A program made the position numbers and the translations under genes. DNA of 64,000 bases from Dehalococcoidia bacterium (GTDB taxonomy: Bacteria > Chloroflexota > Dehalococcoidia > SHYB01), in contig OZ242299.1 in assembly GCA_965207995.1 (NCBI GenBank), positions 788,863 through 852,862 on the forward strand, given 5' to 3'. The notes under the pieces were generated by a model that was not told the DNA's origin, searched no databases, and was given only the letters and a program-made list of their open reading frames with translations. Shown here piece after piece: positions 14,029-31,036 of the stretch (its first letter is position 1; every line of letters starts with the position of its first letter).

Positions 14029-15009
14029 ATGGCGGACAACCAGGGCATTCTCGTATTCGCGGAGGTCTCCGACGGCAAGCTCCTCGGCGTGGCCAAGGAA
14101 GGCGTCGCCGTAGCGCGGTCGCTGGCCGCCGGAGGCGACGTCTCCGCGATCATCATCGGCAGCACCGGCGACCTCGGCGCCGAGCTCATCGCCGCCAGCG
14201 CCGACAAGGTGCTGACCTTCGAAAACGCCGACCTCGCGTCCTACCAGCCGGACGCCTACGCCCAGGTGATGCTCCAGGCCGTCGAGGCCGTCTCACCCAA
14301 GGTCGTCATCATCGGCCAGACCGACGTGGGCCGCGACCTCGCCCCGAAGATCGCCTTCAAGCTCGGCGCGAGCCTGACCATGGACTCGGTCAACGTCACC
14401 ATGGACGGCGGCACGCTGAAGGCCACGAAGCCCGTCTACGGCGGCAACGCCCAGGCCACCTACGCCTCGGACGCGGCCCTGCACGTGGTGACGGTGCGCG
14501 TGAAGGCCTTCGAGCCGCTCCCACCGGACAGCGGGCGCAGCGGCAGCGTCGAGGCCCTCGACGCCACCGTCGACGAGTCGGCGGTGCAGGTCCGCATCAC
14601 CGAGGTGAAGAAGCAGAAGTCGGAGGGCGTGCGCCTCGAGGACGCCGACGTGGTCGTCTCCGGCGGGCGCGGCTTCGGCGGGCCCGACCCGTTCGAGGAC
14701 CTGCAGGCGCTTGCCGATGCGCTGGGCGGCGCCATGGGCGCGAGCCGCGCCGTCTGCGACGCGGGCTGGCTGCCCCACTCCTACCAGGTGGGACTGACCG
14801 GCAAGACGGTAACGCCCGACCTCTACATCGCCTTCGCCATTTCCGGGGCCAGCCAGCACATGGCGGGCTGCTCCGGCTCGAAGAACATCGTCGCCATCAA
14901 CAAGGACGCCGACGCGAACATCTTCCAGGAGGCGCGTTACGGCGTCGTCGGTGAGTGGGAGGACATCCTGCCCGCCTTCACCGACATGGTCCGCGAGCTC
15001 AAAGGCTAG
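14029..15009 (+). CDS. etfA: electron transfer flavoprotein alpha subunit
   Basis: Start at [13 protein letters not shown] (atg 14029, AGGAG 11 nt upstream). FAD-binding C-terminal domain (…[14 protein letters not shown]…[11 protein letters not shown]…); track ORF starts inside etfB. Confidence 0.85.
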
Positions 15010-15079
15010 GGCGCGCCGCCGGGAGCAGCGCAGGGGCGCGTCGAGGCGCCGGCCAAGGCCGCGCGCCGGAAGGGACGCG

Positions 15080-15505
15080 ATGGACCTCCAGGAGGTCTTT
15101 CAGCAGATCGAGTCGGCGGAAGTCATCTGCTTCCACTTCCCCTACCTGCGCAAGACGCTGATCGTCGACCCGCGCGCCGACGTCGAAGACCCGCCGCTGG
15201 TGAAGCTCGTGCCGATGGCGAAGTCGGCCGAGGAGCGCCTGCGCAGCCTCCGCACGCTGCGGCCCCGCTTCCCGAAGCCGGAGAAGGTCGTCATCGTGCC
15301 TTGGCCTCGCTACGTGGAGAGTCTGGAGAACCTCGGCGTCTGGCCGAAGCTCGTGGGCCGCGTGGCCACCGAGGGCCACCCCGAGCTCTCGAAGACGTTC
15401 GACGAGGTGATGGTGGAGCTGCGCCAGTTGGAGACGGCCGAGTTCGCCGCCGCCATCACCGGCAAGCAGTACCACACCATCTGGGAAGCCCCCAAGGACG
15501 AGTAG
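15080..15505 (+). CDS. hypothetical protein (141 aa) between etfA and cinA
   Basis: Start at MDLQEVFQQIESAEV (atg 15080). Normal amino-acid composition, same strand and tight spacing as flanking genes; no recognisable domain. Confidence 0.5.
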   Translation: MDLQEVFQQIESAEVICFHFPYLRKTLIVDPRADVEDPPLVKLVPMAKSAEERLRSLRTLRPRFPKPEKVVIVPWPRYVESLENLGVWPKLVGRVATEGHPELSKTFDEVMVELRQLETAEFAAAITGKQYHTIWEAPKDE

Positions 15506-15525
15506 CCGCCGCGCGGCCTCCTCCC

Positions 15526-16776
15526 ATGAAAGCCGAGATCATCTCCATCGGCACCGAGCTGCTGCTCGGTGAGATCGTCGACCTCAACTCGCCCTATCTC
15601 GCTGGCGAGCTGCCCAAGATCGGCGTCGACGTCTATCACATACAGTCCATCGGCGACAACATGGACCGGCTGCTCGACAGCCTCCGCCGGGGCATGGAGC
15701 GTTCCGACCTCGTCCTCATGACCGGCGGGCTGGGCCCCACCGACGACGACCTCACCCGCGCCGCCGTCGCCCGCCTCCTCGGCGAGGAGCTTTACGTCGA
15801 TCCGGAGCTCGAGGCGCAGGTCCGCTCCTTCTTCGGTAACCGCGGCATGAACATGCCCGAGAACAACATCAAGCAGGCCATGCTCATTCCCTCCGCCTCG
15901 GCCATTTCCAACCCGATGGGCACCGCGCCCGGCTGGTGGACGCAGAAGAACGGCAAGGTGCTCGTCTCGATGCCCGGGCCGCCGCGCGAGCTGCGTCACA
16001 TGTGGGAGAACGAGGTCCGTCCCCGTCTCCGCGACATGGTCGGCGGCGGCCTGCTGGTCTCGCGCACCTTGAAGATCACCGGCATCTCCGAGGGCGGCGT
16101 CGACGAGATGTGCGGCGACCTGCTCAAGGCCGCCAATCCCAGCATCGGCGTCTACTCGCGCCCCGACGGCATCCACGTCCGCATCGCGGCCAAGGCCATG
16201 AACGAGGGGGAGGCCGAGGCCCTCATCGGCCCCGTCGAGGCCGAGCTCCGCGGGCGGTTCGGCGAGCATCTCTGGGGCGTCGACGACGAGACGATGCAGG
16301 AGCACGTTGGGAAGCTGCTTGTCGAGCGCGGACTCACCCTCGCCACAATGGAGTCGCTCACCGGCGGGCTGCTCGGCGACACCATCACCAACGTCCCGGG
16401 AAGCTCGCGCTACTACCGGGGCGGCATCGTCGCCTATCAGACCGAGATGAAGATCAAGTACGGCGTCTCCCGCGAGACCATCGAGCGGCACGGGGCGGTG
16501 AGCGAAGAGACGGCGATCGAAATGGCCCAGGCGGCGCGGCGCGAGCTGGGCGCCGACGTGGGCATCGGCGTTACCGGCGTCGCCGGCCCCACCGAGCAGG
16601 AGGGCCGCCCCGTGGGCACCGCCTACATGGCCGTCGCCGACGCCGGGAAGCACGCCACGCACTACGGCAAGTACCCCGGCCGACGCGGCGACATCAAGAC
16701 CCGCGTCGTCACCAACGCCCTCTTCTACACCCGCATGCTCATCCTGGGGAAGGAAGCGCCCACGTACCGGCGCTGA
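15526..16776 (+). CDS. cinA: CinA-family competence/damage-inducible protein (nicotinamide-nucleotide amidohydrolase PncC-like)
   Basis: Start at MKAEIISIGTELLLGEIVD (atg 15526). N-terminal MoCF-biosynthesis-like domain plus C-terminal CinA domain (…MESLTGGLLGDTIT…). Confidence 0.85.
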   Translation: MKAEIISIGTELLLGEIVDLNSPYLAGELPKIGVDVYHIQSIGDNMDRLLDSLRRGMERSDLVLMTGGLGPTDDDLTRAAVARLLGEELYVDPELEAQVRSFFGNRGMNMPENNIKQAMLIPSASAISNPMGTAPGWWTQKNGKVLVSMPGPPRELRHMWENEVRPRLRDMVGGGLLVSRTLKITGISEGGVDEMCGDLLKAANPSIGVYSRPDGIHVRIAAKAMNEGEAEALIGPVEAELRGRFGEHLWGVDDETMQEHVGKLLVERGLTLATMESLTGGLLGDTITNVPGSSRYYRGGIVAYQTEMKIKYGVSRETIERHGAVSEETAIEMAQAARRELGADVGIGVTGVAGPTEQEGRPVGTAYMAVADAGKHATHYGKYPGRRGDIKTRVVTNALFYTRMLILGKEAPTYRR

Positions 16777-16778
16777 TC

Positions 16779-17591
16779 ATGGCCCAAGGCAGGACCGCCT
16801 TCGTCGAGGTCAACGGCGCCCGCATCCACTACGAGCTGGCCGGCGAGGGCGACGCCGTCATCTTCGTCCACGGCTTCCCCTTCGACCTCGGCATGTGGGA
16901 GCCGCAGGTCCCCGAGTTCTCCCGCCGCTTCCGCACCCTTCGCTACGACGCCCGGGGCTTCGGGCGCTCCTCGCTCCCCGGGGCCGTGCCCTACGGCCAC
17001 TACCACGACCTCGCCGCCCTGATCGAGCGCTTCGACCTGGCGCCCGCCCATGTCGTCGGACTCTCCCGTGGCGGTTCCATCGTGCTCAACTTTGCCCTCA
17101 CCTACCCCCGGCTCCTGCGCAAGCTCGTCCTCGCCGGCGCGTCGCCGGGACCGACCCAAGCGCATAAGCTCCACGACTCGGCCCCGAATGAGGGCTACCA
17201 GCAATTGCTCGACGTGGCGCGTGAGCAGGGCATCGACGCCGCCAAGGCCCTCTACCTCCAGTCAGGCATCTTCGCCGCGGCGCAGGACAACCCCGACGCC
17301 CTCGGCATGGTCAACCGCATGCTGGACGACTACTCCGGCTGGCACTTCGTCAACGACGATCCCCACATCGACCTCGATCCCCCGGCCCACGAGCGCCTCG
17401 CCGAGATCGCCGCCCCCACCCTCGCCATCGTCGGCGGACGCGACGTCGAGCTCTTTCACACCCTCGCGGGCATGGTGGAACGAGACGCGCCCAACGCGCG
17501 CAAGGCCGTCATCCCGGACGTTGGCCACATGGTCAACGCCGAGGCGCCCGAGGCGTTCAACCGCCTCGTCCTCGACTTCCTCGAAGCGTAG
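16779..17591 (+). CDS. alpha/beta hydrolase
   Basis: Start at MAQGRTAFVEVNG (atg 16779, 2 nt after the cinA stop). HGFPFD and GLSRGG (G-x-S-x-G nucleophile elbow) motifs. Confidence 0.75.
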   Translation: MAQGRTAFVEVNGARIHYELAGEGDAVIFVHGFPFDLGMWEPQVPEFSRRFRTLRYDARGFGRSSLPGAVPYGHYHDLAALIERFDLAPAHVVGLSRGGSIVLNFALTYPRLLRKLVLAGASPGPTQAHKLHDSAPNEGYQQLLDVAREQGIDAAKALYLQSGIFAAAQDNPDALGMVNRMLDDYSGWHFVNDDPHIDLDPPAHERLAEIAAPTLAIVGGRDVELFHTLAGMVERDAPNARKAVIPDVGHMVNAEAPEAFNRLVLDFLEA

Positions 17592-17608
17592 AGGTGCGCG
17601 GACGCTAT

Positions 17609-17624
17609 AGGTCTAGCTAGACCT
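17609..17624. terminator. perfect 16-bp palindrome AGGTCTAGCTAGACCT between convergent gene ends (possible bidirectional terminator hairpin)
   Basis: Read directly; overlaps the stop codon of the giant minus-strand gene and lies 18 nt after the stop of the plus-strand hydrolase gene; no U-tract. Confidence 0.25.
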
Positions 17625-20600
17625 CTTCGCCGTCGACGTCGATGTCGAACAGGCCGTCCTGGCCGTCGTAGCCCACCGCGACGTAGTAGAGGCCCGTGCT
17701 CGCCGGTTGGTAGACGACGGTGACACTCGAACCGCTGCCGCTGGAAGTGCCGGCGATCAGGTCGCCGTTGCTGTCGTAGATTCCGACGATCTTGACCTGT
17801 GTCGCGCGGTGCTTCTCCGGGACTTCGGCGCGCTCCGAGACCACCACGGTGTACTCGTATCCCTGGTCCATCTCGACCTTGAACCAGTCCTCGTCGCGGT
17901 CGTCGCCGTTCATGTCCCCAAGGAAGCCGCCGCTCGGGCCGTAGCCGTTGTGCTTGCTGGGGGCGGTGTACAGCTTACGAAGCGTGCTCGTGTCCCCGGG
18001 CGTGTCAAGGTCGCCGTAGCCGTCGGGCCCACCGGCATAGGGGTACCTCCGCTCGCCCTCGTACATCATGCAGATGTTGTTGACGCGGACCTTGATCTGG
18101 TACGTGCCGGTGCCGCCGCTTCCTCCAACCTCGATCCGGAAGGGGCCGGGGCTGCCCCACCACCAGCCTCCCAGGCTGTTCTCCCCGTAGCCACTGTCGG
18201 AGACGTGTGGGCTGTATTTGGCCCCCTCCGTCCCTTCCACGGCCTGAACGGAGATGAGTTCGGGATCGGCGAGGGTGAGGTTGCCAGGATGGGTGTCCCG
18301 GCCCAGCATGTCGCGGCCGTCCACGCCGATGACCTCGATGATGTAGTGCCGGTAGGGATCCGGGTCGAAGGTCCAGAAGGCCTTTTCGCCCGCTTGGGTG
18401 ATCTCGCCTATTTCGTCCAAGATGATGATCTCAGTGGCCAGGTTGTCGCACTCGGCGTTCGCCAGGGTGACCACCGCCGTACCGGGATCTCCAAGGACGA
18501 CCCCACTGGGCAGCGGCGTCTTGAAGCCGAGCCGCACCTTCTCGCCGCTGTCCTCGACGTTGTCGTCGAAGGCGACCACGGTGAAGGACTTTTCGTCCTC
18601 TCCCTGGTTGAAGGTCAGCGTCGTTGGCGCGCCCGACCAGTCTTCGGGAACGGCGCCCGCCATCGCCTCCGCGGTCACTTCGATGACCAGCCGCGACGGG
18701 GCCGGCTGGCTTAGGTGCACGACGACCGTGGCGTCTTCGCCGCCCTCGGTGGCCATGTACATATCGGAGCTGAAATAGACCTCGGTCTCGTCGTCGATGA
18801 CGGTGATGTTGACACTGCCCACGCTGATGCCGCTGTAGTCGGTGTCCGTGGAGGCCGCCGAGTGGGTGATGGTGGCCCTCTCCGCCAGCGCGTCGTCGTC
18901 CTGCTCGCCCGAAACCGTCACCGTCTGCTCGTCGTCCCAGTTGGAGTCGGTGAAGGTGAGCTCCGTCTCGTCGACGGATACGTTGGAGCTGCCCGACTTG
19001 GTGATGGTGATGACTACGTTGGCCGTGGGCTGCGAGGTCAGCACCACCGTGTAGGTGTTGCTGCTCCCCTCGTTGATCGTCAGCGAGGTCTGGGAGACCT
19101 TCACGCTCGCCCCGTCGTCGTCGTTGATGGAGATAACCGTCTCGTCGGGCGACACCGCGTCTACCCGGTCCAGCGTACTGGTGTCGAAGCTCAACTTCAC
19201 CGATTCTCCGTCGTCGTCCAGGCTGTCGTCGGTGGCGATGAAGTCGACGATGACTTCGGTCTCCCCGGTCTGGAAGGTCACGTTGTTCCCCAGGGGCGTG
19301 TAGTCGTTGCTGCTCGCGTCGTCCTGCTCGGTGGTGATGAGGGGGATGATCACCTGCCGCTCGGGGTCGGCGTTCAGCTTCACCTTGACCTCGACCGTGC
19401 TCCCCTCGTTGACGGAGTAACTGTCCAGCTCGAAGCTCACCTCGACGAACGGGTCGTCGTCGTCGTCGATACGGACCGTCGCCGCGTTCGTGGCCCCCTC
19501 GCTGACTCGGTCCGGGAAGTCGCCGGTATTGAACCTGAGCAGCACCGACTCGTTGTCGTCGTCCACCTCGTCATGTTCCGCTACGAAGGTGATGGTCTTC
19601 TCTGTCTCGCCACTCTCGAAGGTCACCTCTTGGGGCACCGCGTAGTCGGAGGCGCTTGCGCCGCCCTGCTCGCTCGCCGTGATGGAAACGACGACTTGCC
19701 GCTCGGGATCGGCGTTCAGCTTCACCTTCACCGCGACCTCGTTCTCCGCGACGTTGGGGGTGCTCGTATCGTCACTCTCCGCCACGTTGTACGTCGCCTG
19801 CCCGAAGCTCACCTCGACGGGCGGGTCGTCGTCGTCGTCGATGCTGACCGTCGTCTCGGGCGTTGCTCCCACTTCGACCCGGTCCAGCGAGCTGGTGTCA
19901 AAGCCCAGCTTCACCGACTCATCATCGTCGTCCACCGTGTCGTGGACCGCGGTGAAGGTGAAGGTCTTCTCCGTCTCCCCGTCCTCGAAGGTCACGTCGG
20001 CGGGCACGGTGAAGTCCCCGTCGCTCGCCCCGCCTTGCTTCAACTTGGTGATGGGGATGATCACCCGGCGCTCGGGATCGGCGCTCAGCTTCACCGTCAC
20101 CGTGACCTCGTTCTCCGCGACGTTGGTGGTGGTCGGATCGTCGCTCTCCGCAACTGAGTAGTCGGCTAGCTCGAAGTACACCGCCACGTGAGGGTCGTCG
20201 TCATCGTCAATGCTGACCGTCGTCTCGGCCGGGCTGCCATCGCTGACCCGGTCCAGCGAGCTGGTGTCGAAGCCCAGCTTCACCGACTCATCGTCGTCGT
20301 CCACCGTGTCCTCGACCGCGGTGAAGGTGAAGGTCTTTTCCGTCTCTCCGTCCTCGAAGGTCACGTTGGCGGGCACGGTGAAGTCCCCGTCGATCGCCCC
20401 GCCTTGCTTGGCCTTGGTGATGGGGATGATGACCTGCCGCTCAGGGTCGGCGCTCAGCTTCACCGTCACCGTGAGGTCGTCGCCCTCGTTGACGCTGTAG
20501 GCGTCGAGCTCGAAGCTGACCTCAACGGGCGGCACGTCGTCGTCGTTGATGGAGATCGTCGTTTCGACCACGGTCCCATCGCTGACGCTGTCTAACTCAC

Positions 20601-23523
20601 TGGTGTCCAAGGCCAGCTTCACCGACTCGCCGTCGTCGTCGATCGTGTCCTGTTCGGCGGCAAATGCGAACACGTGCTCAGTCTCGCCGTTGTTGAAGCC
20701 GACGACCGTGGGCAACGTCAAATAGTCATCCCTGGTCGCACCGTCCTGATCGGTTTTCACGATGGGAATGATCAGGTACCGCTCAGGGTCCACATCCAGG
20801 GTCACCTTGATTGTCACCGTGCCGCCTTCGTCGACTTCGTAGTTGGCCTCAGCGAAGCTCACCGTGACCGGCACATCCTCGTCGTCGATGGTCGTCACCT
20901 TGACGCTCCCGGCGGCGAAGTTGTTGTAGTCGGTGTCCGTGGAGGCAACGGTGTGGGTGATCGTGCCTTCGTCGTCGAGGTGGTCATCGTCCTGGTCGGC
21001 GGTGACGATGACCGTCTGCTCCTGGTTCCAGTCGGAGTCGGTGAAGGTAAGGGGCGTGGTGGCGTCAACAGATATATCGGGGCCGCTGGGCACGTTGACG
21101 GTTACCGTGACGTCGGCCGTGGGCTGGGAGGTCAGCACCACGGTGTAGGTGTCGGTGAGACCCTCTTCGATGGTGAGGCTGGGGGGCTCGATGGTGACGC
21201 CGGCGCCGTCGTCGTCGTTGATGCTGACCGTTGTCTGGGCGATGGTCCCGACACTGATGCGGCTCGGCAGGTCGGAGCCGAAGCTCAGCCTCACCGACTC
21301 CCCGTCGTCATTGAGCGTGTCCTGCGCCGCGGTGAAGGTGAACGTCTCCTCCGTGTCGCCGCTCGCGAAGGTCAGGGTCTCGGGCACGCCCGAGTAGTCG
21401 GCGGGGCTGTTCACGCCACCCTGATCGCTCTTGGTGAGGCGGATCTCCACCCGGCGCTCGGGATCGGCGCTGAGCGTCACCGTCACCTCCACCGTGTCCC
21501 CCTCGGCGACAGAGTAGGCAGCCTTGCCGAAGTTCACCTTGACGAACGGGTTATCGTCGTCGTTGATATCGATCGTGGCCTCGCCGTTGGTCCCCTCCGT
21601 CACCGCGTTGGGGAGGGTGCCGAAGCCCAGCTTCACCGACTCGTCGTCGTCGTCCACCGTGTCCTGGCGCGCGGTGAAGTTGAAGAACTTTTCCGTCTCC
21701 CCGCTCAGGAAGACCACGTTGCGGGGCACCCCCGAATAGTCGGAGCCGGTCGCGCCGTCCTGTTCCACCTTGTTGATAGGGATGACCACGCGGCGCTCGG
21801 GGTCTTCGCTGAGGCTGACCTCAACCCTCACGAGGTCGCCCTCGTCAACGAAGTAGGTGGCCTGCTCGAAGGTCACCGTCACCGGCACGTCCTCATCGTC
21901 GATGACGTCCACCTCGACGCTGCCCACGCTGATGCCGTTGTAGTCGCCGTCCGTGGAGCTAGCGGTGTGGGAGATGGTGGCGGACTCGTCGAGGTGGTCG
22001 GCATCGTCGTGGGCCGCCGTTACTCTCACCGTCTGCCTGTGGCCCCAATCGGAGTTGGTGAAGGTGAGCGTCGTTTCGTCGGTCGAGACGTCGGAACTGC
22101 CGGTCCTGGAGATGGTGATGACGACGTTGGCCGTGGGCTGGGAGTTCAGCACTACCGTATAGTCCCGGCTTCCGCCTTCGTTGATCGTGAGCGTCGTGGG
22201 GGAAACGATCACACCGGCGCCGTCGTCGTCGTTGATGCTGACGGTCGCCGTGGCGGTAGTCCCTTCGCTGACCTCGTCCAACTGACTGGTGTCGAAGCCC
22301 AAGGCAACCGACTCTCCGTCATCATCCAGCTTGTCCTGGTACGCGGAGAAGATGAAGGTTCTCTCCGTCTGCCCGCTCCTGAACGTCACGTCCTCGGGGA
22401 CGCCGGAATAGTCGTCGCTGCTCGCGTCCCCCTGCTCGGTCTTGGTGATGGGGATGACGACCTCTCGCTCAGGGTCCTTGTCGAGCGTCACCGTGACCCT
22501 GACCGTGTCTCCCTCGTTCACCGAGTAAGTGGCGGACTTGAAGTTCACCTCGACCGGCACTTCCTCGTCGTCGATCACTTTCACGCTGAGGCTGCGCACG
22601 CGGACGCCGTCGTAGTCGGCGTCGGTGGAGCTAGCCGTGTGCGAGATGGTGGCGGTCTCGTCGAGGTAGTCGTCGTCCTGCTCGGTGGAGACGGTGACCG
22701 TCTGCGGGGCGTCCCAAGTGGAGTCGGTAAAGGTGAGCGTCGTCTCGTCTACAGATACGTCGGCGTCGGTTGGCGTGCCGACCGTGACGACGACGTCGGC
22801 GGTGGGCTGGGAATTCAACCTCACGGTGTAGGTGTCTTCTTCACCCTCGTCGATGGTCAAACTGCTTGGGGAGACCCGCACGCCGACGCCATCGTTGTCG
22901 GTGATTTTGACCATCGCCTGGTTGTTGGGGCCCAAGGTCACCGCGTCGGGCAGCGGTGAGCCGATCCCCAGCGCGACCGCCTCTTCGTCGTCGTCCAGCA
23001 TGTCCTCGGTCGCCGCGAAGTCGAAGGTCTGCTCTGTCTCCCCGCTCTCGAAGATCACCTGGGTCGGTATACCCGAGTAGTCGGAAGGAGTGATGCCGCC
23101 GTACTGGGTCTGGGTGATGGGGATCACCACTTGGCGCCCGGGGTCGCCATCGAGCATGACCTTCACCGACACCCGGCTCCCCTCCTCGACGGCGTAGGTG
23201 GTCTGCTCGAAGCTCACCGCTACCTCTCTGATAGCCTCCGGGCCGTCGTCGTCGATGACGGAGATGGTGGTCGCCTTGATGGTGCCGGCGGAGACCGCGT
23301 TGGGAAGCTCTCCCAGGTCCAGCCGCAGCGACTCATCGTCGTCGTCCGAGACGTCCTGCGCCGCGGTGAAGGTGAAGGAGCTCGACGTCTCCCCGCTCTC
23401 GAAGGTGACGCTGGACGGCACGCCCGAATAGTCGGCGGACGTCAAGCCACCCTGTTCGGTCGCGGTAATGGGGACCACCACCTGCCGCTCCGGGTCCGCG
23501 CTGAGCGTCACCCTCACCACCAC
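17617..23523 (-). CDS. giant secreted Calx-beta repeat protein, C-terminal 1,968-aa portion (after the frameshift) with two C-terminal pre-peptidase (PPC) domains
   Basis: About 11 Calx-beta-like modules (F..Y.V.EG…L[SD].DPER.V.IPI……DY……V.F..GE.E..F.F.A..D..DDD.E) alternating with four ~105-aa modules (L.SQPTA.V..T……V.…LTFT..NW…QTV.V.A..D.D..DE..TI.H). The last ~270 aa hold two PPC-like domains (…DWFKVEMDQGYEYTVVV…GTSSGSGSSVTVVYQPASTGLYYVAVGYDGQDGLFDIDV). The first codon is GTG inside a Calx-beta domain, so this ORF is the continuation of 23333..25750. Confidence 0.8.
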   Translation of the reverse strand: MVVRVTLSADPERQVVVPITATEQGGLTSADYSGVPSSVTFESGETSSSFTFTAAQDVSDDDDESLRLDLGELPNAVSAGTIKATTISVIDDDGPEAIREVAVSFEQTTYAVEEGSRVSVKVMLDGDPGRQVVIPITQTQYGGITPSDYSGIPTQVIFESGETEQTFDFAATEDMLDDDEEAVALGIGSPLPDAVTLGPNNQAMVKITDNDGVGVRVSPSSLTIDEGEEDTYTVRLNSQPTADVVVTVGTPTDADVSVDETTLTFTDSTWDAPQTVTVSTEQDDDYLDETATISHTASSTDADYDGVRVRSLSVKVIDDEEVPVEVNFKSATYSVNEGDTVRVTVTLDKDPEREVVIPITKTEQGDASSDDYSGVPEDVTFRSGQTERTFIFSAYQDKLDDDGESVALGFDTSQLDEVSEGTTATATVSINDDDGAGVIVSPTTLTINEGGSRDYTVVLNSQPTANVVITISRTGSSDVSTDETTLTFTNSDWGHRQTVRVTAAHDDADHLDESATISHTASSTDGDYNGISVGSVEVDVIDDEDVPVTVTFEQATYFVDEGDLVRVEVSLSEDPERRVVIPINKVEQDGATGSDYSGVPRNVVFLSGETEKFFNFTARQDTVDDDDESVKLGFGTLPNAVTEGTNGEATIDINDDDNPFVKVNFGKAAYSVAEGDTVEVTVTLSADPERRVEIRLTKSDQGGVNSPADYSGVPETLTFASGDTEETFTFTAAQDTLNDDGESVRLSFGSDLPSRISVGTIAQTTVSINDDDGAGVTIEPPSLTIEEGLTDTYTVVLTSQPTADVTVTVNVPSGPDISVDATTPLTFTDSDWNQEQTVIVTADQDDDHLDDEGTITHTVASTDTDYNNFAAGSVKVTTIDDEDVPVTVSFAEANYEVDEGGTVTIKVTLDVDPERYLIIPIVKTDQDGATRDDYLTLPTVVGFNNGETEHVFAFAAEQDTIDDDGESVKLALDTSELDSVSDGTVVETTISINDDDVPPVEVSFELDAYSVNEGDDLTVTVKLSADPERQVIIPITKAKQGGAIDGDFTVPANVTFEDGETEKTFTFTAVEDTVDDDDESVKLGFDTSSLDRVSDGSPAETTVSIDDDDDPHVAVYFELADYSVAESDDPTTTNVAENEVTVTVKLSADPERRVIIPITKLKQGGASDGDFTVPADVTFEDGETEKTFTFTAVHDTVDDDDESVKLGFDTSSLDRVEVGATPETTVSIDDDDDPPVEVSFGQATYNVAESDDTSTPNVAENEVAVKVKLNADPERQVVVSITASEQGGASASDYAVPQEVTFESGETEKTITFVAEHDEVDDDNESVLLRFNTGDFPDRVSEGATNAATVRIDDDDDPFVEVSFELDSYSVNEGSTVEVKVKLNADPERQVIIPLITTEQDDASSNDYTPLGNNVTFQTGETEVIVDFIATDDSLDDDGESVKLSFDTSTLDRVDAVSPDETVISINDDDGASVKVSQTSLTINEGSSNTYTVVLTSQPTANVVITITKSGSSNVSVDETELTFTDSNWDDEQTVTVSGEQDDDALAERATITHSAASTDTDYSGISVGSVNITVIDDETEVYFSSDMYMATEGGEDATVVVHLSQPAPSRLVIEVTAEAMAGAVPEDWSGAPTTLTFNQGEDEKSFTVVAFDDNVEDSGEKVRLGFKTPLPSGVVLGDPGTAVVTLANAECDNLATEIIILDEIGEITQAGEKAFWTFDPDPYRHYIIEVIGVDGRDMLGRDTHPGNLTLADPELISVQAVEGTEGAKYSPHVSDSGYGENSLGGWWWGSPGPFRIEVGGSGGTGTYQIKVRVNNICMMYEGERRYPYAGGPDGYGDLDTPGDTSTLRKLYTAPSKHNGYGPSGGFLGDMNGDDRDEDWFKVEMDQGYEYTVVVSERAEVPEKHRATQVKIVGIYDSNGDLIAGTSSGSGSSVTVVYQPASTGLYYVAVGYDGQDGLFDIDVDGEEV

Positions 23524-25750
23524 GGCGTTGCCTTCGACAAACCGAGTAGCCGGTCCGTTCGAAGCTCACCGTCACGGATACCGGTGCTGTCGGTGCTGCC
23601 TCGGGGACTCGGGCGATTATCGTGGCATCATCGTCGACTATGGTGACGATGGTCTCGTCGTTCGTGCCGCCGAGGACCGCCGTCGGGAGGGTCCCGAAGT
23701 CCAGCTTCACCGACTCTTCATCGTCGTCCGCCTCATCCTGGACGGCCGTGAAGGTGAAGGACTGCTCGGTCTCCCCGCTCTCGAAGGTTACGTTCGACGG
23801 TACGCCTGAGTAGTCCGCGGACGTCATCCCGTTCTGCTCGACCGTCTCGATGGGAATGACCACCTGGCGCTCGGGGTCTTTGTCGAGGTTCACCTTGATG
23901 GTGACCATGCTCCCCTCGGTGACCCTGTAGCTGTCCCGTTCGAAACTCGCCTTCACCCGTACGTCGTCGCTGTCAAGGACGTGCACGTTGACGGCGGCCA
24001 CGGCCTTGCCGCTGTAGTCGCTTCCCGCCGCCGTAACCGCGTGGGTGATCGTGGCGGTGTCGTCGGTCCCGTCGAAGTCCTGGGCGGTCGAAACCATCAC
24101 CGTTTGCGCCGTTTCCCAGTTGGACGCGGTGAAGATGAGCGCGCGTTTGTCGACGGTTACGTCCGGGTTGTCCGGCGCCGTGACCGAGACGGTCACGTTC
24201 GCTGCCGGTTGCGAGGCCAGCACCACCGTATAGGGCTTGCTCAGGCCCTCGGCGACAGTCAGCGTGGTCGGGGAGACCGTTATTCCGGCGCCGTCGTCAT
24301 CAATGATGGTGACGGTGGCCTCGTTCGCCGGGCCCTCACTGACGCCGTTGGGCAGCGACGCGCCAAAGGCCAGCTTGACCGACTCGCCGTCGTTCTCTCC
24401 GTCGTCGTCGATGCTGTCCTGGACCGCGGTGAAGGTGAAGGACTGCTCCGTTTCCCCGCTCTCGAAGGTCACGCTCTCGGGCACGCCGGAGTAGTCGGCG
24501 CTGCTCGCGCCGTCCTGTTCGCTCGCCGTGATGGGAACCACGACGTGCCGCTCTGGGTCCGCGCTCAGGGTGATCGTCACGTCGACCTCGTCGCCTTCCG
24601 CAAGCGTGTAGGTGGCGGACTTGAAGCTCACCATCACGGACGGCACGTCATCGTCGTTGATGGAAACGGCCGTTTCGCTCGTGGCGCCGACGGTGACCGC
24701 GTTGGGCAGGCTCCCGAAACCGATCGTCACCGACTCATCGTCGTCGTCCACCATGTCCTGGACCGCGGTAAAGGTGAAGGTCTTCTCCCTCTCTCCGCTC
24801 TCGAAGGTCACGGTCTCGGGCACGCCCGTATAGTCGGCGGCGGTGACCCCGCCCCGCTCGCTCTTGGTGAGGGGAATGACCACCTGCCGCTCTGGGTCCG
24901 CGCTCAGCGTGACCTTCACGGTCGTTGCGCTTCCCTCGGCGACGACATGGGCGGCTTGATCGAAGGAGACGGTGACCGGCGCGTCCTCATCGTCGATGAC
25001 GGTCACGCCCACGCTGGCCATGCGGATGCCGTCGTAGTCGCCGTCGTCGGAGTTGACCGCATGGGCGATCGTGGCGCTCTCGTCCAGGTGGTCGTCGTCT
25101 TGGGCGGCGGACACCGTCACGGTCTGTTCGTCATCCCAGTTGGACGCGGTGAAGGTCAGGCTGCTCGTGTTCACCGACACGCCGGAGCCGCCGGAAGTCG
25201 CGAGGGTGACCGTGACGTCGGCCGTCGGCTGGGAGGCCAGCACCACCGTGTAGGTCGTACTGCCTCCCTCATCAACGGTCAGCGCGGTCTCGGACACGAC
25301 AACGCCGACGCCGTCATCGTCGTTGATGAACACGTCGGTCTCGTCGGTATCCCCTTCATTCACACCCGTGGGCAGGCTGCCGAAGGCCAACGAGACCGAC
25401 TCACCGTCGTCGTCCACGGTGTCTTGCGCGGCAGTCAGGGTGAAGGTCTTCTCCGTTTCCCAGCTCGCGAAGGTCACGGAGGCGGGTACGCCAGAGTAGT
25501 CCGAATCGCTCACGCCGCCCTCTTCGGTCGTGGTGATCGGGACCACCACCTCTCGTCCCGGGACGACGTCGAGCGTCACCGTGACGGTGACGCTTTGTCC
25601 CTCGGCGACGGCGTAGGAGCTTTGCTCGAAGCTGACCGCGACCCATGGGCCATCCTCGGACAAAGCAAAAGGCAAGGCCGCCGCGATCCCAATCACACCC
25701 AGCGCAGCAAAGCCCAGCACACGACTCTTGAGAGTGAGCAGGCTAAACAT
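23333..25750 (-). CDS. giant secreted Calx-beta repeat protein, N-terminal portion with signal peptide (authentic frame only from 25750 down to about 23541)
   Basis: Starts MFSLLTLKSRVLGFAALGVIGIAAALPFALSEDGPW (signal peptide), then 4 Calx-beta and 2 SQPTA-type modules. After …VSFERTGYSV the reading becomes nonsense (CRRQRRGGEG…); shifting by one nucleotide restores …VEGNAVVVRVTLSADPERQ, i.e. the start of ORF 17617..23523. Confidence 0.75.
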   Translation of the reverse strand: MFSLLTLKSRVLGFAALGVIGIAAALPFALSEDGPWVAVSFEQSSYAVAEGQSVTVTVTLDVVPGREVVVPITTTEEGGVSDSDYSGVPASVTFASWETEKTFTLTAAQDTVDDDGESVSLAFGSLPTGVNEGDTDETDVFINDDDGVGVVVSETALTVDEGGSTTYTVVLASQPTADVTVTLATSGGSGVSVNTSSLTFTASNWDDEQTVTVSAAQDDDHLDESATIAHAVNSDDGDYDGIRMASVGVTVIDDEDAPVTVSFDQAAHVVAEGSATTVKVTLSADPERQVVIPLTKSERGGVTAADYTGVPETVTFESGEREKTFTFTAVQDMVDDDDESVTIGFGSLPNAVTVGATSETAVSINDDDVPSVMVSFKSATYTLAEGDEVDVTITLSADPERHVVVPITASEQDGASSADYSGVPESVTFESGETEQSFTFTAVQDSIDDDGENDGESVKLAFGASLPNGVSEGPANEATVTIIDDDGAGITVSPTTLTVAEGLSKPYTVVLASQPAANVTVSVTAPDNPDVTVDKRALIFTASNWETAQTVMVSTAQDFDGTDDTATITHAVTAAGSDYSGKAVAAVNVHVLDSDDVRVKASFERDSYRVTEGSMVTIKVNLDKDPERQVVIPIETVEQNGMTSADYSGVPSNVTFESGETEQSFTFTAVQDEADDDEESVKLDFGTLPTAVLGGTNDETIVTIVDDDATIIARVPEAAPTAPVSVTVSFERTGYSVCRRQRRGGEGDAQRGPGAAGGGPHYRDRTGWLDVRRLFGRAVQRHLRERGDVELLHLHRGAGRLGRRR

Positions 25751-25759
25751 CCACGTTTT

Positions 25760-25788
25760 ATTGTAACCAAATATTGAACCTAGTTCAA
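25760..25788 (-). promoter_or_regulatory. candidate sigma-70-type promoter TTGAAC-17-TACAAT for the giant gene; -10 ends 9 nt before the ATG (near-leaderless mRNA)
   Basis: Minus-strand reading of 25751-25790 is …TTGAACTAGGTTCAATATTTGGTTACAATAAAACGTGG-ATG; about 100-bp AT-rich island (25751-25850) in GC-rich DNA; no Shine-Dalgarno. Confidence 0.4.
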
Positions 25789-25989
25789 AACCAGCACAAA
25801 TTCGTCACATCTCTTTCCTAACGGCACACCTTTTTCTCACAAGAGGACACCGGGGGCCGATTCCCCCAAGAAAGGCCTCCCACGCGTGCGGCGCGCACGC
25901 TCAGTTAACGCGCAACAGGCATAACGGCCAGGATGAGACAGCCCGAAGAGGAAGGGCGAGAGGAAGAAAGGGCTTACCGTCGGGCCGTT

Positions 25990-28900
25990 CTACACCGTCA
26001 GACGGCGGTAAAGCTGCGGTAGCCGCTCCGGCAGCGTGTGGATGTCGGCGACGACCTCGTAGCCCATGTCGCCGCCCATCATCGTCTTCAGGTAGTCGTG
26101 GCCGGCCCGGTCGACGGTGAGGCAGAACGGTGTGATACCCAAGCGCCGCGCTTCGAGCAGCGCCATGCGCGTGTCGTGGACCGCGTACTCTTTCTCCACG
26201 CCCTCGCGGCTGTAGCCCCGGTCCTGCGGCCGGCCATCACTGAGCAGGAAGAGCACCTTGGTGCGAGCCTCGTGGTCGTCGAGCTTGCTGACCGCGTGCC
26301 GGATCGCCGGCCCCATGCGCGTGGCGTGCATCGGCGTGATCTTGTCGAGGCGGCGCTTCACGTTCTCACCGAAGGTTTCCGCGATGTCCTTGACCACGTA
26401 GAACTCGACGTTTTCGCGACCGTAGCCGGAGAAGCCGTAGATGCCGTACTGATCGCCGATGGCCTCCAGCGCCTTGATGAGCAGCACCGTGCTCTCTTTC
26501 TCGATGTCGATGATCCGCTTGTAGGTGCGGCGGCTCATCTCCTCGCGGCGGGTGCGGAGCCACGTCATGTAATCGCGCGGGTCGTCGGGGAAGTCCCACG
26601 AGTCGAACTGCCGGCGCGTCTCATCGACGGCCTCGGCGGTCGAGGCGCTCATGTCGAGCAGGAAGCTCACCGCGACATCGCGCTCGATTTTGTTGCGTCG
26701 CCAGTAGATCTTGTCCGTCGGCGTGTCGCCCGCGCGGGCTTGGATCATGGCCTCGACGACCAGGTCGAAGTCGTACTCCTCCCCGTCGGGAAGGTGCTTG
26801 ACCCTCCGCAGCTGCTCCGGCGCCAGCGACTCGAACTGCTTCTTGATGCGCGAGACGAGTCCATAGTGCGCCCGCAGCGTTCGCTCGAAGAAGTCGACAG
26901 TGCCCTCATCCATGCGCTTCTCGCGCACCGCGCACCAGCGGGGCTTGTAGTCCCCGGCCCGGAAGTCCCACTCGTCGTAGAGGAACGTCTCGGCTTCGCT
27001 CGCCAGCGGGGCGTCGTCGTCCTCGCTGTGCTGGAACTGCGTCCCCTGCTTCGACTTGGCCTGCTGTTGCCGCGCCGCCTCGTTGATCAGGTTGTCGACG
27101 AACTGGCTCGACGACTGCGGCAGGTCGCCCTCTTGCGCCTCCGCGACCTCGATCTCGGCCGACTTTTCGAGCAGTTGTCGCAAGTCTTCCTCGGAGAGCC
27201 CCGTGATCTCCATCGGGTTCTGCGCCTTCGAGCGCTCGTTCTTGAGGTTGTCGAACGCCTGCACGAGCTCGGGCTTGAACTCGCCGCGGAAGTCCACCAT
27301 CTGGGGACTCTTGTATTCCTGCTCGTCGCCGTCGGGCTGGCCCTCGCCCGAGGCGCCCTCCATGAGGTCTTGCAGCATTTGGTCGAGGTCGCCCTCGTCG
27401 CCGTCCTGGCCCATCTCGTCCATGCTGCGTTCTTCGCCGCTTTCGGGGTCGGCCTCGACGTTGGGCACCGTGCTCAGCAGGTCGTAGATGCGGATCGTCG
27501 CCTCCGCCGTGTCTTCGACCGTCCGTTCCTCGTGTTGCATCGTCCGCACCAGCACCGCCAGAGCGTCGAGATACTCCGAGATCTCGGCCGGCGTCTTGAC
27601 CGTCCCCGTCTCCTCCAGGCTCAGCCGGACCAGCACCTCCATCGCCGCCTCCCGCAGCGGCAAGCTGTCCGGTTCCGGGCGCGAGCGCAGCGACTCGCGC
27701 TGCACCCGGCTGTAGCTCTCGCCGATGCCGGCGTACTCGTACTTCACCCGGTGGTCGATACGCCCGTCTTCGACGAGCATGAAGATGTCCGAGGCCAACT
27801 TCCGGTCGCTGAACAGATCGAAGAACCGCTCCAGGTCGATCCGCGCGCCGCCGTCGCCGTCGCGCTTGCCCAGGACGGCCCGCTGCTCCTCGGCGGCGAA
27901 GACCGTGGACGGCTTGTCGAACTGGAAGCCGAAGCTCCCGAACTCCAGGTGTGCTACCTGGTGGGTCGCGATGACCTTGAACCACGCGAAGTTCTCGTCC
28001 TTCGTGGTGTACCGCTCCACAAACGTAGGGAGGAAGATGTTGTCGCCCTCCGTCGTGGCATAGTCAGAAGACGTCCAACCGATCCCCTTGCCCTGCAGCT
28101 CGTCGGTGGGCCGCAGCTCGACCCGTTGGCCCGCGAGCGCGCGGCAATACATGGTGAGGACTTCGTTCACCCGCGCCAGATCGAGCCCCGATGAGAGGTC
28201 TTCGATGGCCCGCTCCGCGCGGCCCGATTCGAGGCGGAAGAAGGCGAGGCCGCCGTCCTCGTTCTCGTCGAGGACGCGCAGCCCCGCATTGAACCAGCCC
28301 TCCAGCCGCTCGCCGCGCAGCCGGTTCATCACCACCGGCGCGTTCTTGACGAACTCTCCCACCGCGGCAGCCGAGTGGTCGGCGAGCCGGTCGGCCATGT
28401 CGAGGAGCGGACCGTGCCAGTCCGGGTGCACCTCGCCAAGAGCGGCGGAGGCTTCCACGAGGAACGTGATCGTGTTGCCCGCCCCCTGCTGCGAGAGCTG
28501 CTGCGCCAAATCGAGGAAGCGTCCGCGCTGGCGGGGCTCCACGCGCTCGATGATCTTCGGGCCGTTCTCGAAATACGGCTTGACGTCGCGCCAGTTCCCG
28601 CGCACCAGCACCGAGCCCAGGTTCAGGAAGCTGACACGGTCGCCGGGGTCGATCTTGGGAAAGACGCCGCTCGCCAGCGCGAGGCACTCGTTCGCCAGGT
28701 CGTACGACTTCTGGGCCAGGCTGTCGATAAAGTCGACGAGGTCTTCAAGTTCCTGGAGGGTGAGCGCGCCCAGCAGCCGCGGGCTCGCCTCGAAGTAGGT
28801 CGAGGCCAGGGAGCTCGACTTCCACGTTCCCTTGTAGAGCCGCTTGCCGACGCCGGCCCAGCGCCCCAACTCCGAGCCTCGCACGTAGGGAATCACCTCG

Positions 28901-29223
28901 GGCGTGGCGCGGAAGAAGGACGATGAGATGACCGGCGAGTCGGACGACAGCGCTCGGCCCCACCGGGCCCACTCCATCACCTCGGGGAATTCGAGCGCCT
29001 GCACCACGCGCGGTGTCGACTTGAAGTACTCGGTCGCCGCTTCCCAGGATCGGAAGGTGTGCTGCGCCAGCGAGACGCCCTCCGCCGCCCACGCTTGGTA
29101 GTCGTCGGCGCCGAGGTGCTTGCGGGCCGCTTCCTCGGCGCCGCGGAACTCGGTGACCACGGACACGGGGAATCGCTGCAGTTGCGATTCGAACGTGGCG
29201 GGGTCGTAAGCCTTATCCGTCAC
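25990..29223 (-). CDS. von Willebrand factor A domain protein, CbbO/NorD-like partner of CbbQ-type MoxR ATPase (1,077 aa)
   Basis: C-terminal VWA domain with MIDAS DxSxS (FLLDMSASTAE); N-terminal ~350 aa has degenerate helical repeats as in CbbO/NorD; long acidic low-complexity insert (…PESGEERSMDEMGQDGDEGDLDQMLQDLMEGASGEGQPDGDEQEY…); 76 nt downstream of the ATPase gene. Confidence 0.8.
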   Translation of the reverse strand: MTDKAYDPATFESQLQRFPVSVVTEFRGAEEAARKHLGADDYQAWAAEGVSLAQHTFRSWEAATEYFKSTPRVVQALEFPEVMEWARWGRALSSDSPVISSSFFRATPEVIPYVRGSELGRWAGVGKRLYKGTWKSSSLASTYFEASPRLLGALTLQELEDLVDFIDSLAQKSYDLANECLALASGVFPKIDPGDRVSFLNLGSVLVRGNWRDVKPYFENGPKIIERVEPRQRGRFLDLAQQLSQQGAGNTITFLVEASAALGEVHPDWHGPLLDMADRLADHSAAAVGEFVKNAPVVMNRLRGERLEGWFNAGLRVLDENEDGGLAFFRLESGRAERAIEDLSSGLDLARVNEVLTMYCRALAGQRVELRPTDELQGKGIGWTSSDYATTEGDNIFLPTFVERYTTKDENFAWFKVIATHQVAHLEFGSFGFQFDKPSTVFAAEEQRAVLGKRDGDGGARIDLERFFDLFSDRKLASDIFMLVEDGRIDHRVKYEYAGIGESYSRVQRESLRSRPEPDSLPLREAAMEVLVRLSLEETGTVKTPAEISEYLDALAVLVRTMQHEERTVEDTAEATIRIYDLLSTVPNVEADPESGEERSMDEMGQDGDEGDLDQMLQDLMEGASGEGQPDGDEQEYKSPQMVDFRGEFKPELVQAFDNLKNERSKAQNPMEITGLSEEDLRQLLEKSAEIEVAEAQEGDLPQSSSQFVDNLINEAARQQQAKSKQGTQFQHSEDDDAPLASEAETFLYDEWDFRAGDYKPRWCAVREKRMDEGTVDFFERTLRAHYGLVSRIKKQFESLAPEQLRRVKHLPDGEEYDFDLVVEAMIQARAGDTPTDKIYWRRNKIERDVAVSFLLDMSASTAEAVDETRRQFDSWDFPDDPRDYMTWLRTRREEMSRRTYKRIIDIEKESTVLLIKALEAIGDQYGIYGFSGYGRENVEFYVVKDIAETFGENVKRRLDKITPMHATRMGPAIRHAVSKLDDHEARTKVLFLLSDGRPQDRGYSREGVEKEYAVHDTRMALLEARRLGITPFCLTVDRAGHDYLKTMMGGDMGYEVVADIHTLPERLPQLYRRLTV

Positions 29224-29299
29224 GGAAGCACTTCCATCGCCGGACTCTCGTCCTCACTGGAGCGGCGGCCGGGGAGCGAAACGTCGCCCGCCGCCGGGC

Positions 29300-30202
29300 C
29301 TAGGGGAAGATGCTCGAGACGACCTCTTCGATGCTGCGCTGCACCTCGTGGTCGTCGGTCAGCCCCCACACCACCGCCGCCTGACAGGCACGGCGAGCCG
29401 GAATGCCCCCCGCGATCAGCCGGCCCGCGTAGATGAGCAGGCGCGTGCTCACGCCTTCGTGCAGGCCGTGGTCCTTGAGGTGCCGCACCTTCTCACCCAG
29501 CTTGGCGAGATTCATCGCCACCTCGGGCCCCACGCCGGCCTCGTGCTCGATCACCTGCGTCTCGATTTCTCTGGGGGAGTAGTCGAACTCGAGCGAGATG
29601 AACCGCTGGCGCGTGCTGTGCTTCAAGTCCTTCAGCGCGCTCTGGTAGCCAGGGTTGTACGACATCACCAGCAGGAATTGGTCGCTGGCCTCCAGGATCT
29701 CGCCGCGCTTCTCCACGGGCAGCAGGCGCCGGTGGTCGGTCAGCGGGTGGATGAGCACCGTCGTGTCCTTCCGCGCCTCGACGATCTCGTCGAGGTAGCA
29801 GATGGCCCCGGCCTTCACCGCCCGGCTCAGCGGGCCGTCGATCCACTTCGTCTCCTGCCCCTCCAAGAGATAGCGGCCCACCAGGTCGCTGGATGTCAAG
29901 TCCTCGTGGCAGGCAATGGTGACCAGGGGCAGCCCCTTGCCCGTCCCATTCTTCGAGGCCGCCTTGCCGCGCTTCCTGCCTTTTACGAGGGGCCGGCCCA
30001 GCCGCCAAGACATGTACTCCACGAACCGCGTCTTGCCGCAGCCCGTCGGCCCCTTCAGCAGCACCGGGATCTTGGTCTTGTAGGCCGCCTCGAATACCTC
30101 CACTTCGTCGTTGACCGGCAGATAGAAGGGCTCCTCTTCGAGGAGGTACTCTTCGATGATGTAGTGGCGATAGAGCGTCTGCTCTCTGCCTGTTGTGGCC
30201 AT
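29300..30202 (-). CDS. CbbQ/NirQ/NorQ/GvpN-family MoxR AAA+ ATPase
   Basis: 300 aa; Walker [18 protein letters not shown], Walker B ICYLDEI, sensor/arginine-finger regions characteristic of the CbbQ subfamily; carries a ~20-aa Lys/Gly-rich insertion ([20 protein letters not shown]) after …WRLGRPL that is absent from the CbbQ consensus as I recall it. Confidence 0.85.
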
Positions 30203-30236
30203 GTCCCCTACTTCCTTATCCGCACCGGCGGTACGG

Positions 30237-30833
30237 CTAGGCCGCGACGCGCGCCTCGAAGGCCGCCCGCACCCGCTCCCGCACCTCGTCCAACGTGGCG
30301 TCCGTGTCGATTACCACGTCGGCATAGCTCTGGCGCTCCTCCGCCGGCATCTGCGACGCCATCCGCGAGCGCACCTGCTCTTCTTCCCAGCCATTCCGCG
30401 CCATCACCCGCTGCACCACCACGTCCTCCGGCGCCGCCGTCACCCAGACCTCGTCGACCAGCGACGTCCACTTCGCCTCGATCAGGATCGCAGCGTCCAC
30501 CACCACCACCCGCTTCCCCTCACCGCGAAAAGCCTCGATCCGGTCGTTCATGATGTCGCGCATGCGGGGATGCACAATGCTGTTGAGTTTTTCCAGGTTC
30601 GCGGGGTCGCTGAAGACGATGGCGCCGAGCTTCTTGCGGTCGATCTCCCGGTTGGGTTGGAGCAGGTCTTCGCCCCAGGTGTCGATCAAGTCTCGCCACG
30701 CCGGCATATCCGGCAAGTACGTTACGTGACCGACCTTGTCGGCGTCGATGACCTCGGCGCCTAGCTCTTCGAGAAAACCGGATACGGTGGTCTTGCCGCT
30801 GCCAATTCCGCCGGTCAGACCGATCACGAGCAT
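30237..30833 (-). CDS. coaE: dephospho-CoA kinase
   Basis: 198 aa; P-loop [14 protein letters not shown] at the N-terminus and overall CoaE signature. Confidence 0.85.
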
Positions 30834-31036
30834 GCGACGCCGACCCTCGTTCCCTTCTGGTATCCCCGCCGTAGGCAGTCTCGCATTTTAGCAGCGCCCC
30901 TTCTGAGGGGTCAAGGAAACCGCACCTTTCCCCGGCCAACGGCGGGCGGCGGCGCGAGGGCTCCCTCGGAGGCGCGGCGCGGTATACTGAGGGCGTAGCC
31001 CCAGGGAGCCGTGAGGCCCGTAGGACAGGAGCAAGC

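Follow-up and report, generated by a model that had tools for sequence, protein, structure and literature searches.

A single extra base splits the gene of a giant Calx-beta protein, a probable adhesin, in a Dehalococcoidia bacterium

We analysed a 64,000-nucleotide stretch of the genome of a Dehalococcoidia bacterium (assembly GCA_965207995.1, contig OZ242299.1, positions 788,863 to 852,862; hereafter, the window) and found that two open reading frames (ORFs) on its minus strand are the halves of one gene, split by a single extra T. After removal of this base, the gene (17617..25750, stop codon included) encodes a protein of 2,710 amino acids with 21 beta-sandwich modules, 15 of them Calx-beta modules and six of a second type, referred to here as SQPTA, followed by a C-terminal region of 275 residues. 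We think it likely that this one gene specifies an extremely acidic, Sec-exported extracellular or cell-surface protein, in which a calcium-stiffened stalk would carry a binding tip, and that the protein acts as a long-reach adhesin. An initial annotation, made from the sequence alone, had described one secreted protein of about 2,710 amino acids at positions 17617-25750. The coordinates, on the minus strand, were confirmed, and the size matches the repaired product. The single protein likewise exists after repair, but the gene is interrupted as assembled, and the initial annotation mentioned a repaired translation merely in passing.

One gene interrupted by an extra T

The upstream ORF (25750..23333, minus strand) encodes 805 amino acids, which begin with a hydrophobic N terminus, continue as Calx-beta-like repeats and end in 70 residues of Arg/Gly-rich nonsense. 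The downstream ORF (23523..17617, minus strand; 1968 amino acids) resumes the repeat exactly where the 805-residue frame loses it. The DNA at the shift reads 'ggc tac tcg gTTT gtc gaa ggc', and its T run (tcggTTTgtcgaagg; 23539..23541, minus strand) carries one extra T, which places the frameshift within Calx-beta module 5, at about residue 737. Deleting one T from this run yielded the 2,710-residue protein with no internal stops.

Comparison with relatives pointed to the same base. Orthologous DNA from two loci showed a one-base gap precisely at the extra T, and over the junction an intact relative of 2,715 amino acids (P0121, in the same 90% cluster) reads SFERTGYTVVEGN, compared with SFERTGYSVVEGN in the repaired protein. 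Orthologues of 2,717 amino acids (81% identity) and 2,706 amino acids (73% identity) covered 100% of the repaired protein, and a third, of 2,677 amino acids (71% identity), covered 99%. None of the relatives compared has the extra T. Programmed frameshifting was rejected as an explanation because the extra base is missing in all relatives and because the 'GUU UGU' context was judged not to be a +1 slippery site.

Two sources of the frameshift come into question: a sequencing error, or a mutation that inactivated the gene very recently. In the latter case the insertion would be real and the gene dead in the source strain, a pseudogene whose possible product is a 735-residue secreted stub with 70 out-of-frame residues and without the binding tip. 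We regard this as possible, although less probable than a functional gene. It is consistent with the deposited genome, which carries the frameshift on a 2.79-Mb contig and annotates the two parts individually, with 805 and 1866 amino acids, and with the confinement of the frameshift to this genome among the relatives. However, the reading frame stays open throughout the 5.9 kb that follow the shift, all modules score as well as those of intact orthologues, and assemblies commonly contain artefacts in which a short run of T is wrong in length by one base. The open 5.9 kb and the intact module scores therefore indicate that any inactivation was very recent, unless the frameshift is itself an artefact. 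For annotation, the consequence is that two adjacent deposited gene calls are one 2,710-residue gene with a one-base defect; the results leave current understanding unchallenged, and their value lies mostly in such annotation.

Calx-beta and SQPTA modules and a C-terminal pair

Searches with hidden Markov models (HMMs) recovered the Pfam Calx-beta family (PF03160) at 140.1 bits over four stretches (E 4e-41) and at 273.6 bits over 11 stretches (E 2e-82), relative to a gathering cutoff of 27 bits. Fourteen of the modules are of a DPER type and the fifteenth is divergent, scoring 35.5 bits by itself. A profile built from all 15 modules aligned over the full domain length with solved structures in the PDB, namely CBD1-CBD2 of CALX (3rb7; E 6.5e-11) and CBD1 of NCX1 (2dpk, E 3.7e-5), as well as with 3ead (E 3.3e-5). 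The Calx-beta assignment of the initial annotation thus stands, far above the Pfam cutoff and in alignment with the CALX and NCX1 domains.

In these alignments, the module motif 'qD..D..E' lies opposite 'DDDIFEEDE' of CBD1, the terminal 'DDD' opposite 'DDD', and 'FE' opposite 'FE'. We take the CBD1 residues at these positions to be calcium ligands (E385, which is that of 'FE', D447, E451, E454 and D498-500). Across the Calx-beta modules, D77, D81 and E84 are invariant (15 of 15 copies) and the terminal DDD is present in 13-14 of 15. Judged by alignment, then, the canonical modules keep acidic residues that match the DDD and E motifs of CBD1.

Modules 11 to 13 coincide with a DNA tandem repeat (19427-20474) that has a period of 369 nucleotides, 2.8 copies and 81% matches, and modules 12 and 13 share a 10-residue insert resembling DDPTTTNVAENE. 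The number of Calx-beta modules varies from 15 to 18 among orthologues, which suggests that repeat expansion and contraction are ongoing.

The SQPTA modules are marked by SQP[TA]A motifs at residues 173, 513, 980, 1203, 1541 and 2239. No Pfam family reached its cutoff for the isolated modules or for 56 diverse copies; among these 56, there were weak matches to fn3_6 in 19 and to LapA in 12, and the match to the Pfam LapA repeat, at 22 bits, lies under the cutoff of 27. The module is nevertheless common: 96 of the 120 best homologues contain it, and by our count they hold 878 copies altogether, a single protein having as many as 38, so that Pfam leaves a frequent type uncaptured. An AlphaFold model of SQPTA module 3, computed from 56 input sequences, was an all-beta sandwich with a predicted local distance difference test (pLDDT) score of 96.5. 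The beta-sandwich proposed by the initial annotation is therefore upheld by structure prediction, and can be refined to a relative of Calx-beta. An hhalign comparison of SQPTA with the protein's own Calx-beta profile gave a probability of 97.3% (E 2.6e-11), the alignment spanning 105 of 114 columns. In Foldseek searches with the model, CBD1 of CALX matched with a template modelling (TM) score of 0.71 and had the highest sequence identity (20-22%) among the matches, with PapD/MSP-type sandwiches ranking about as high. Positions E16, D73 and D75 of the module are near-invariantly acidic, and the last residues of most copies are DDD or DDE. We read SQPTA as a divergent domain of the Calx-beta superfamily that has lost the 'EQGGA...DY' loop. 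Matches of the SQPTA profile to antibody lambda constant regions in the PDB (E above 0.02) were set aside as chance hits to 'SQPKA'.

The initial annotation had closed the protein with two pre-peptidase C-terminal (PPC) domains. The protein's own Pfam score is below the cutoff and covers one domain, so the call of two domains rests on fold and family-level evidence; against the check that the initial annotation had set itself, support from HMM searches, the PPC assignment in this copy holds up by a narrow margin. At the family level, the C-terminal 275 residues are conserved as one terminal unit in 27 of the 120 best homologues, and 18 of 20 homologous units match Pfam PPC (best E 1.5e-6). Homology also links the two halves of the unit (PPC-like domain 1 against domain 2, hhalign 93.6%, E 2e-7). 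A profile of the unit, run against 1.84 billion representatives, retrieved 3,050 relatives, 415 of them at E 1e-30 or better, and matched P0126, which Pfam identifies as PPC at 398 bits, at E 2e-270. Proteins with Pfam PPC scores of up to 398 bits contain the second PPC-like half in tandem arrays of 6-33 copies. At the level of fold, the AlphaFold model of the pair had a pLDDT of 78 overall and of 88-96 in the second domain, and its top Foldseek match was the tandem collagen-binding domains s3a-s3b of ColG (E 1.9e-6). Taken together, sequence profiles and the model indicate that the C-terminal region is a pair of homologous jelly rolls resembling PPC or collagen-binding domains, which sustains the initial call through the half-to-half homology and the family profile.

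The whole C-terminal unit stood behind Calx-beta arrays in all five Calx-beta-containing full-unit matches that we checked, and giant Calx-beta proteins of Dehalococcoidia repeatedly carry the tandem PPC unit as their tip. Pfam and NCBIfam scans found no peptidase domain anywhere in the 2,710 residues. When the C-terminal profile was compared with the PDB, NCAM (E 0.038) and filamin were judged to be chance matches. The protein has two cysteines only, Cys2434 at the end of Calx-beta 15 and Cys2560, which is invariant in the linker after PPC-like domain 1, beside an invariant GGPDGY motif. A disulfide between these two residues, locking the terminal unit, is possible.

Motif and HMM mapping gave the module order, in which C denotes a Calx-beta and S an SQPTA module, as signal, C S C C S C C C S C S C C S C C C C C S C, and the C-terminal region. 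All features are on the minus strand. The signal-like N terminus (residues 1-31; 25658..25750) is followed by Calx-beta 1 (residues 34-149; 25304..25651), SQPTA 1 (146-259; 24974..25315), Calx-beta 2 (255-371; 24638..24988) and Calx-beta 3 (369-489; 24284..24646), all three Calx-beta modules being supported by both Pfam and module mapping and the SQPTA module by motif and module mapping. The same motif and mapping evidence supports SQPTA 2 (486-599; 23954..24295). Calx-beta 4 (595-710; 23621..23968) is followed by a short Pro/Ala linker (711-723) and by Calx-beta 5, which contains the frameshift (724-838; 23236..23581). Calx-beta 6 (841-956; 22882..23229; Pfam and module mapping) precedes SQPTA 3 (953-1066; 22552..22893), the copy modelled by AlphaFold. 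The next modules were placed by module mapping: Calx-beta 7 (1062-1179; 22213..22566), SQPTA 4 (1176-1290; 21880..22224), Calx-beta 8 and 9 (1286-1517; 21199..21894), SQPTA 5 (1514-1628; 20866..21210), the tandem Calx-beta 10-14 (1624-2215; 19105..20880) and SQPTA 6 (2212-2325; 18775..19116). The divergent Calx-beta 15 (2321-2436; 18442..18789) was recognised by Pfam. The C-terminal region consists of PPC-like domain 1 (2441-2558; 18076..18429), identified through the model, Foldseek and hhalign, the conserved linker with Cys2560 and GGPDGY (2559-2609; 17923..18075), and PPC-like domain 2 (2610-2710; 17620..17922), identified through a weak Pfam match, the family profile and the fold.

This mapping reproduced the counts of about 15 Calx-beta and six SQPTA modules in the initial annotation, and the consensus strings given there for the two modules agree with those that we computed. 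As for the order, both module types, a Calx-beta run and the C-terminal pair are present, but the SQPTA modules are interspersed singly rather than in strict alternation. The tandem Calx-beta run expected before the C terminus is the five-module series 10-14, but one SQPTA and one Calx-beta module still separate it from the C-terminal domains. Elsewhere in the window, we found no extra copies of Calx-beta, SQPTA or PPC.

Proposed export and function

The sole hydrophobic stretch of the protein spans residues 10-30 (11-30 in the mapped N-terminal segment), with K8 and R10 before it and A-L-S|E-D after it, A-L-S directly preceding E32. The first Calx-beta module starts five residues later, and this layout is conserved in orthologues, which have V-L-S|N-D. 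On this basis we infer that the protein is exported by the Sec pathway. The view of the initial annotation that the only sorting signal is N-terminal agrees with our scans. Neither Pfam nor NCBIfam gave an RTX or hemolysin-type match, the C terminus has no hydrophobic tail, and a candidate type IX secretion cargo domain (Por_Secre_tail) was rejected, as it scored 13.4-13.6 bits relative to cutoffs of 23-27 and overlapped the PPC match. Cadherin (PF00028) matched neither ORF nor the isolated modules. The composition is strongly acidic, with 19.8% Asp plus Glu and a net charge of -406.

These features suggest a model in which the protein would be exported by Sec through its N-terminal signal-like segment, and calcium bound at domain ends and junctions would stiffen the chain. 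With 21 domains of approximately 4-5 nm each, the stalk could extend to about 100 nm. If the signal is left uncleaved, the N terminus would stay near or in the membrane, and the distal tandem PPC pair could attach to an insoluble ligand, for instance a polymer of the matrix, making the protein a long-reach adhesin. An adhesin or matrix role is plausible by analogy with known proteins.

Several observations weigh against this model. The gene is frameshifted as assembled, and the downstream 1968-residue part has no signal peptide. At the tip, Pfam PPC (PF04151) scored 18.4 bits (E 0.004) over the last 75 residues only, under a cutoff of 25.9, and PPC-like domain 1 had no Pfam match. In the stalk, the position aligned with 'FE' of CBD1 is acidic (E or D) in only nine of the 15 Calx-beta modules. 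We looked in the protein for an LPXTG motif and a C-terminal hydrophobic tail and found neither. The gene neighbourhood is conserved in the closest relative only, so that genomic context lends no functional support. Finally, homology is the source of all four predicted properties: calcium binding, rigidity, surface retention and ligand binding.

Because no anchoring motif was found, the protein, if cleaved, would simply be released. This raises a second explanation, namely that signal cleavage leads to shedding of the protein, which would then serve as a calcium-crosslinked extracellular scaffold or biofilm component and not as an adhesin attached to the cell. The (A/V)-L-S motif directly before the first domain, the lack of any cell-wall or membrane anchor elsewhere in the protein and its extreme acidity are in keeping with such a role. 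However, a long uniform stalk with a distinct, conserved terminal pair has the look of a tip-binding adhesin, and a scaffold needs no single terminal binding unit; we therefore hold a released matrix protein to be rather doubtful. A further variant, which we consider unlikely, concerns the ligand: the PPC-like tip might act as a carbohydrate-binding module that captures substrate, keeping polysaccharide or particulate organic matter close to the cell.

It is also conceivable, but very improbable, that the protein forms an S-layer-like outer coat of a cell without a conventional wall. An acidic protein of immunoglobulin (Ig)-like repeats with predicted Sec export would suit an envelope protein. 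However, a 2,710-residue rod of 21 domains is unlike lattice-forming S-layer proteins, and both the variation in Calx-beta number among orthologues and the presence of two family loci in several genomes fit a variable adhesin better than a fixed coat. We favour the adhesin with a calcium-stiffened stalk and a binding tip.

Relatives, gene neighbourhood and known systems

The 36 genomic loci that carry the C-terminal unit are nearly all labelled as metagenome-assembled genomes (MAGs), 'MAG: Dehalococcoidia bacterium', with a few labelled Chloroflexota or Acidimicrobiia. All close relatives bear the Dehalococcoidia label. Some Dehalococcoidia MAGs hold two separate loci with the tandem PPC unit (L021/L026, L016/L028 and L023/L033).

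The locus of the 81% orthologue is syntenic with the window, including CoaE, a MoxR-type AAA protein, a 1077-residue VWA protein, the giant gene and, further downstream, CinA; the 71% and 56% orthologues lie in a different gene neighbourhood. Upstream on the same strand, the region 25990-30202 (minus strand) encodes the MoxR-type AAA+ protein (300 amino acids; AAA_5 and CbbQ_C) and the 1077-residue protein, of which a C-terminal VWA domain is the only recognised part. A functional link of the giant gene to this pair was rejected, because the pair is syntenic in the 81% orthologue only and absent from the two other loci. No dedicated secretion system adjoins the gene, whose neighbours are the MoxR-type AAA protein, the VWA protein and a hydrolase. 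The last of these, a 270-residue alpha/beta hydrolase (16779-17591, plus strand), is convergent with the giant gene and ends 25 bp from its stop; it lies hidden within a longer, spurious ORF of 551 amino acids that overlaps CinA. At the locus of the 81% orthologue, extra small genes (TatA and a PhoX fragment) sit between the hydrolase and the giant gene. An Rfam scan of 15000-31000 returned no RNA family, and neither terminators nor promoters were detected by a scan of 16700-17700. Elsewhere in the window, a SecF-like protein of 901 amino acids (34515-37220, plus strand) matches SecD_SecF_C over residues 695-881 only, with no Pfam match for its approximately 690 N-terminal residues, and adjoins a normal SecD of 445 amino acids (33106-34443). 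At 901 amino acids, it is unusually long for SecF.

At least one relative belongs to a sponge-symbiont bin series (APA_bin, Aplysina aerophoba), and another is labelled 'Langseth_MAG', Langseth Ridge being an Arctic sponge ground; accession numbers of the related MAGs gave no match in the literature. PF03160 is reported to be enriched in sponge microbiomes (PMC9531527, PMC11706023), and sponge aggregation factors, whose adhesion depends on calcium, contain 2-15 Calx-beta domains (PMC5400394). If the source organism is a sponge symbiont, the protein might be a host-matrix anchor, with a collagen-binding-domain-like tip that grips sponge collagen or spongin and a calcium-dependent stalk that resembles the Calx-beta aggregation factor of the host, although this is a long shot. 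Were it true, the Calx-beta stalk would favour retention or tolerance of the symbiont in the mesohyl, and the family would offer testable candidates for host-matrix attachment by abundant uncultured Chloroflexota.

The likenesses to known systems differ by region. The modules align end to end with the solved CBD1 structures of the Na+/Ca2+ exchangers NCX1 and CALX, including the acidic 'D..D..E' and terminal 'DDD' motifs. In the exchanger, however, these domains form a cytoplasmic regulatory pair within a transporter, whereas here they belong to a bacterial protein, predicted to be extracellular, with 15 copies and six further copies (SQPTA) without the 'EQGGA...DY' loop. The C-terminal pair finds its best structural match among the collagen-binding domains of the clostridial collagenases ColG and ColH and the PPC family, including the tandem s3a-s3b, but in this protein there is no peptidase and the copy scores under the Pfam PPC cutoff. 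The sponge aggregation factors MAFp4 and AqAFs likewise have multiple Calx-beta domains, but their Wreath, VWA and VWD domains are absent from this protein, and mimicry would be speculation. The Calx-beta 'eukaryotic-like proteins' of sponge symbionts share the domain, and the Aplysina bin mentioned above carries a relative of this protein.

A parallel in overall design is offered by the giant calcium-dependent repeat adhesins of Gram-negative bacteria (LapA, SiiE and Marinomonas MpIBP), which share with this protein a long chain of Ig-like domains, acidic calcium sites at the junctions (predicted here) and distal C-terminal ligand-binding domains; in addition, SQPTA shows a weak likeness to the LapA repeat of Pfam. 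Adhesins of this type are exported by type I secretion and have RTX repeats and a C-terminal signal, with no N-terminal signal peptide. By contrast, the protein studied here begins with a signal-like segment and lacks any RTX match, and its gene adjoins no transporter genes of the ABC, membrane-fusion or TolC kind. We infer that it would work in the manner of LapA, SiiE and MpIBP while standing outside their type I-secreted family, and we count it as an ordinary representative of the giant adhesin-like proteins of bacteria.

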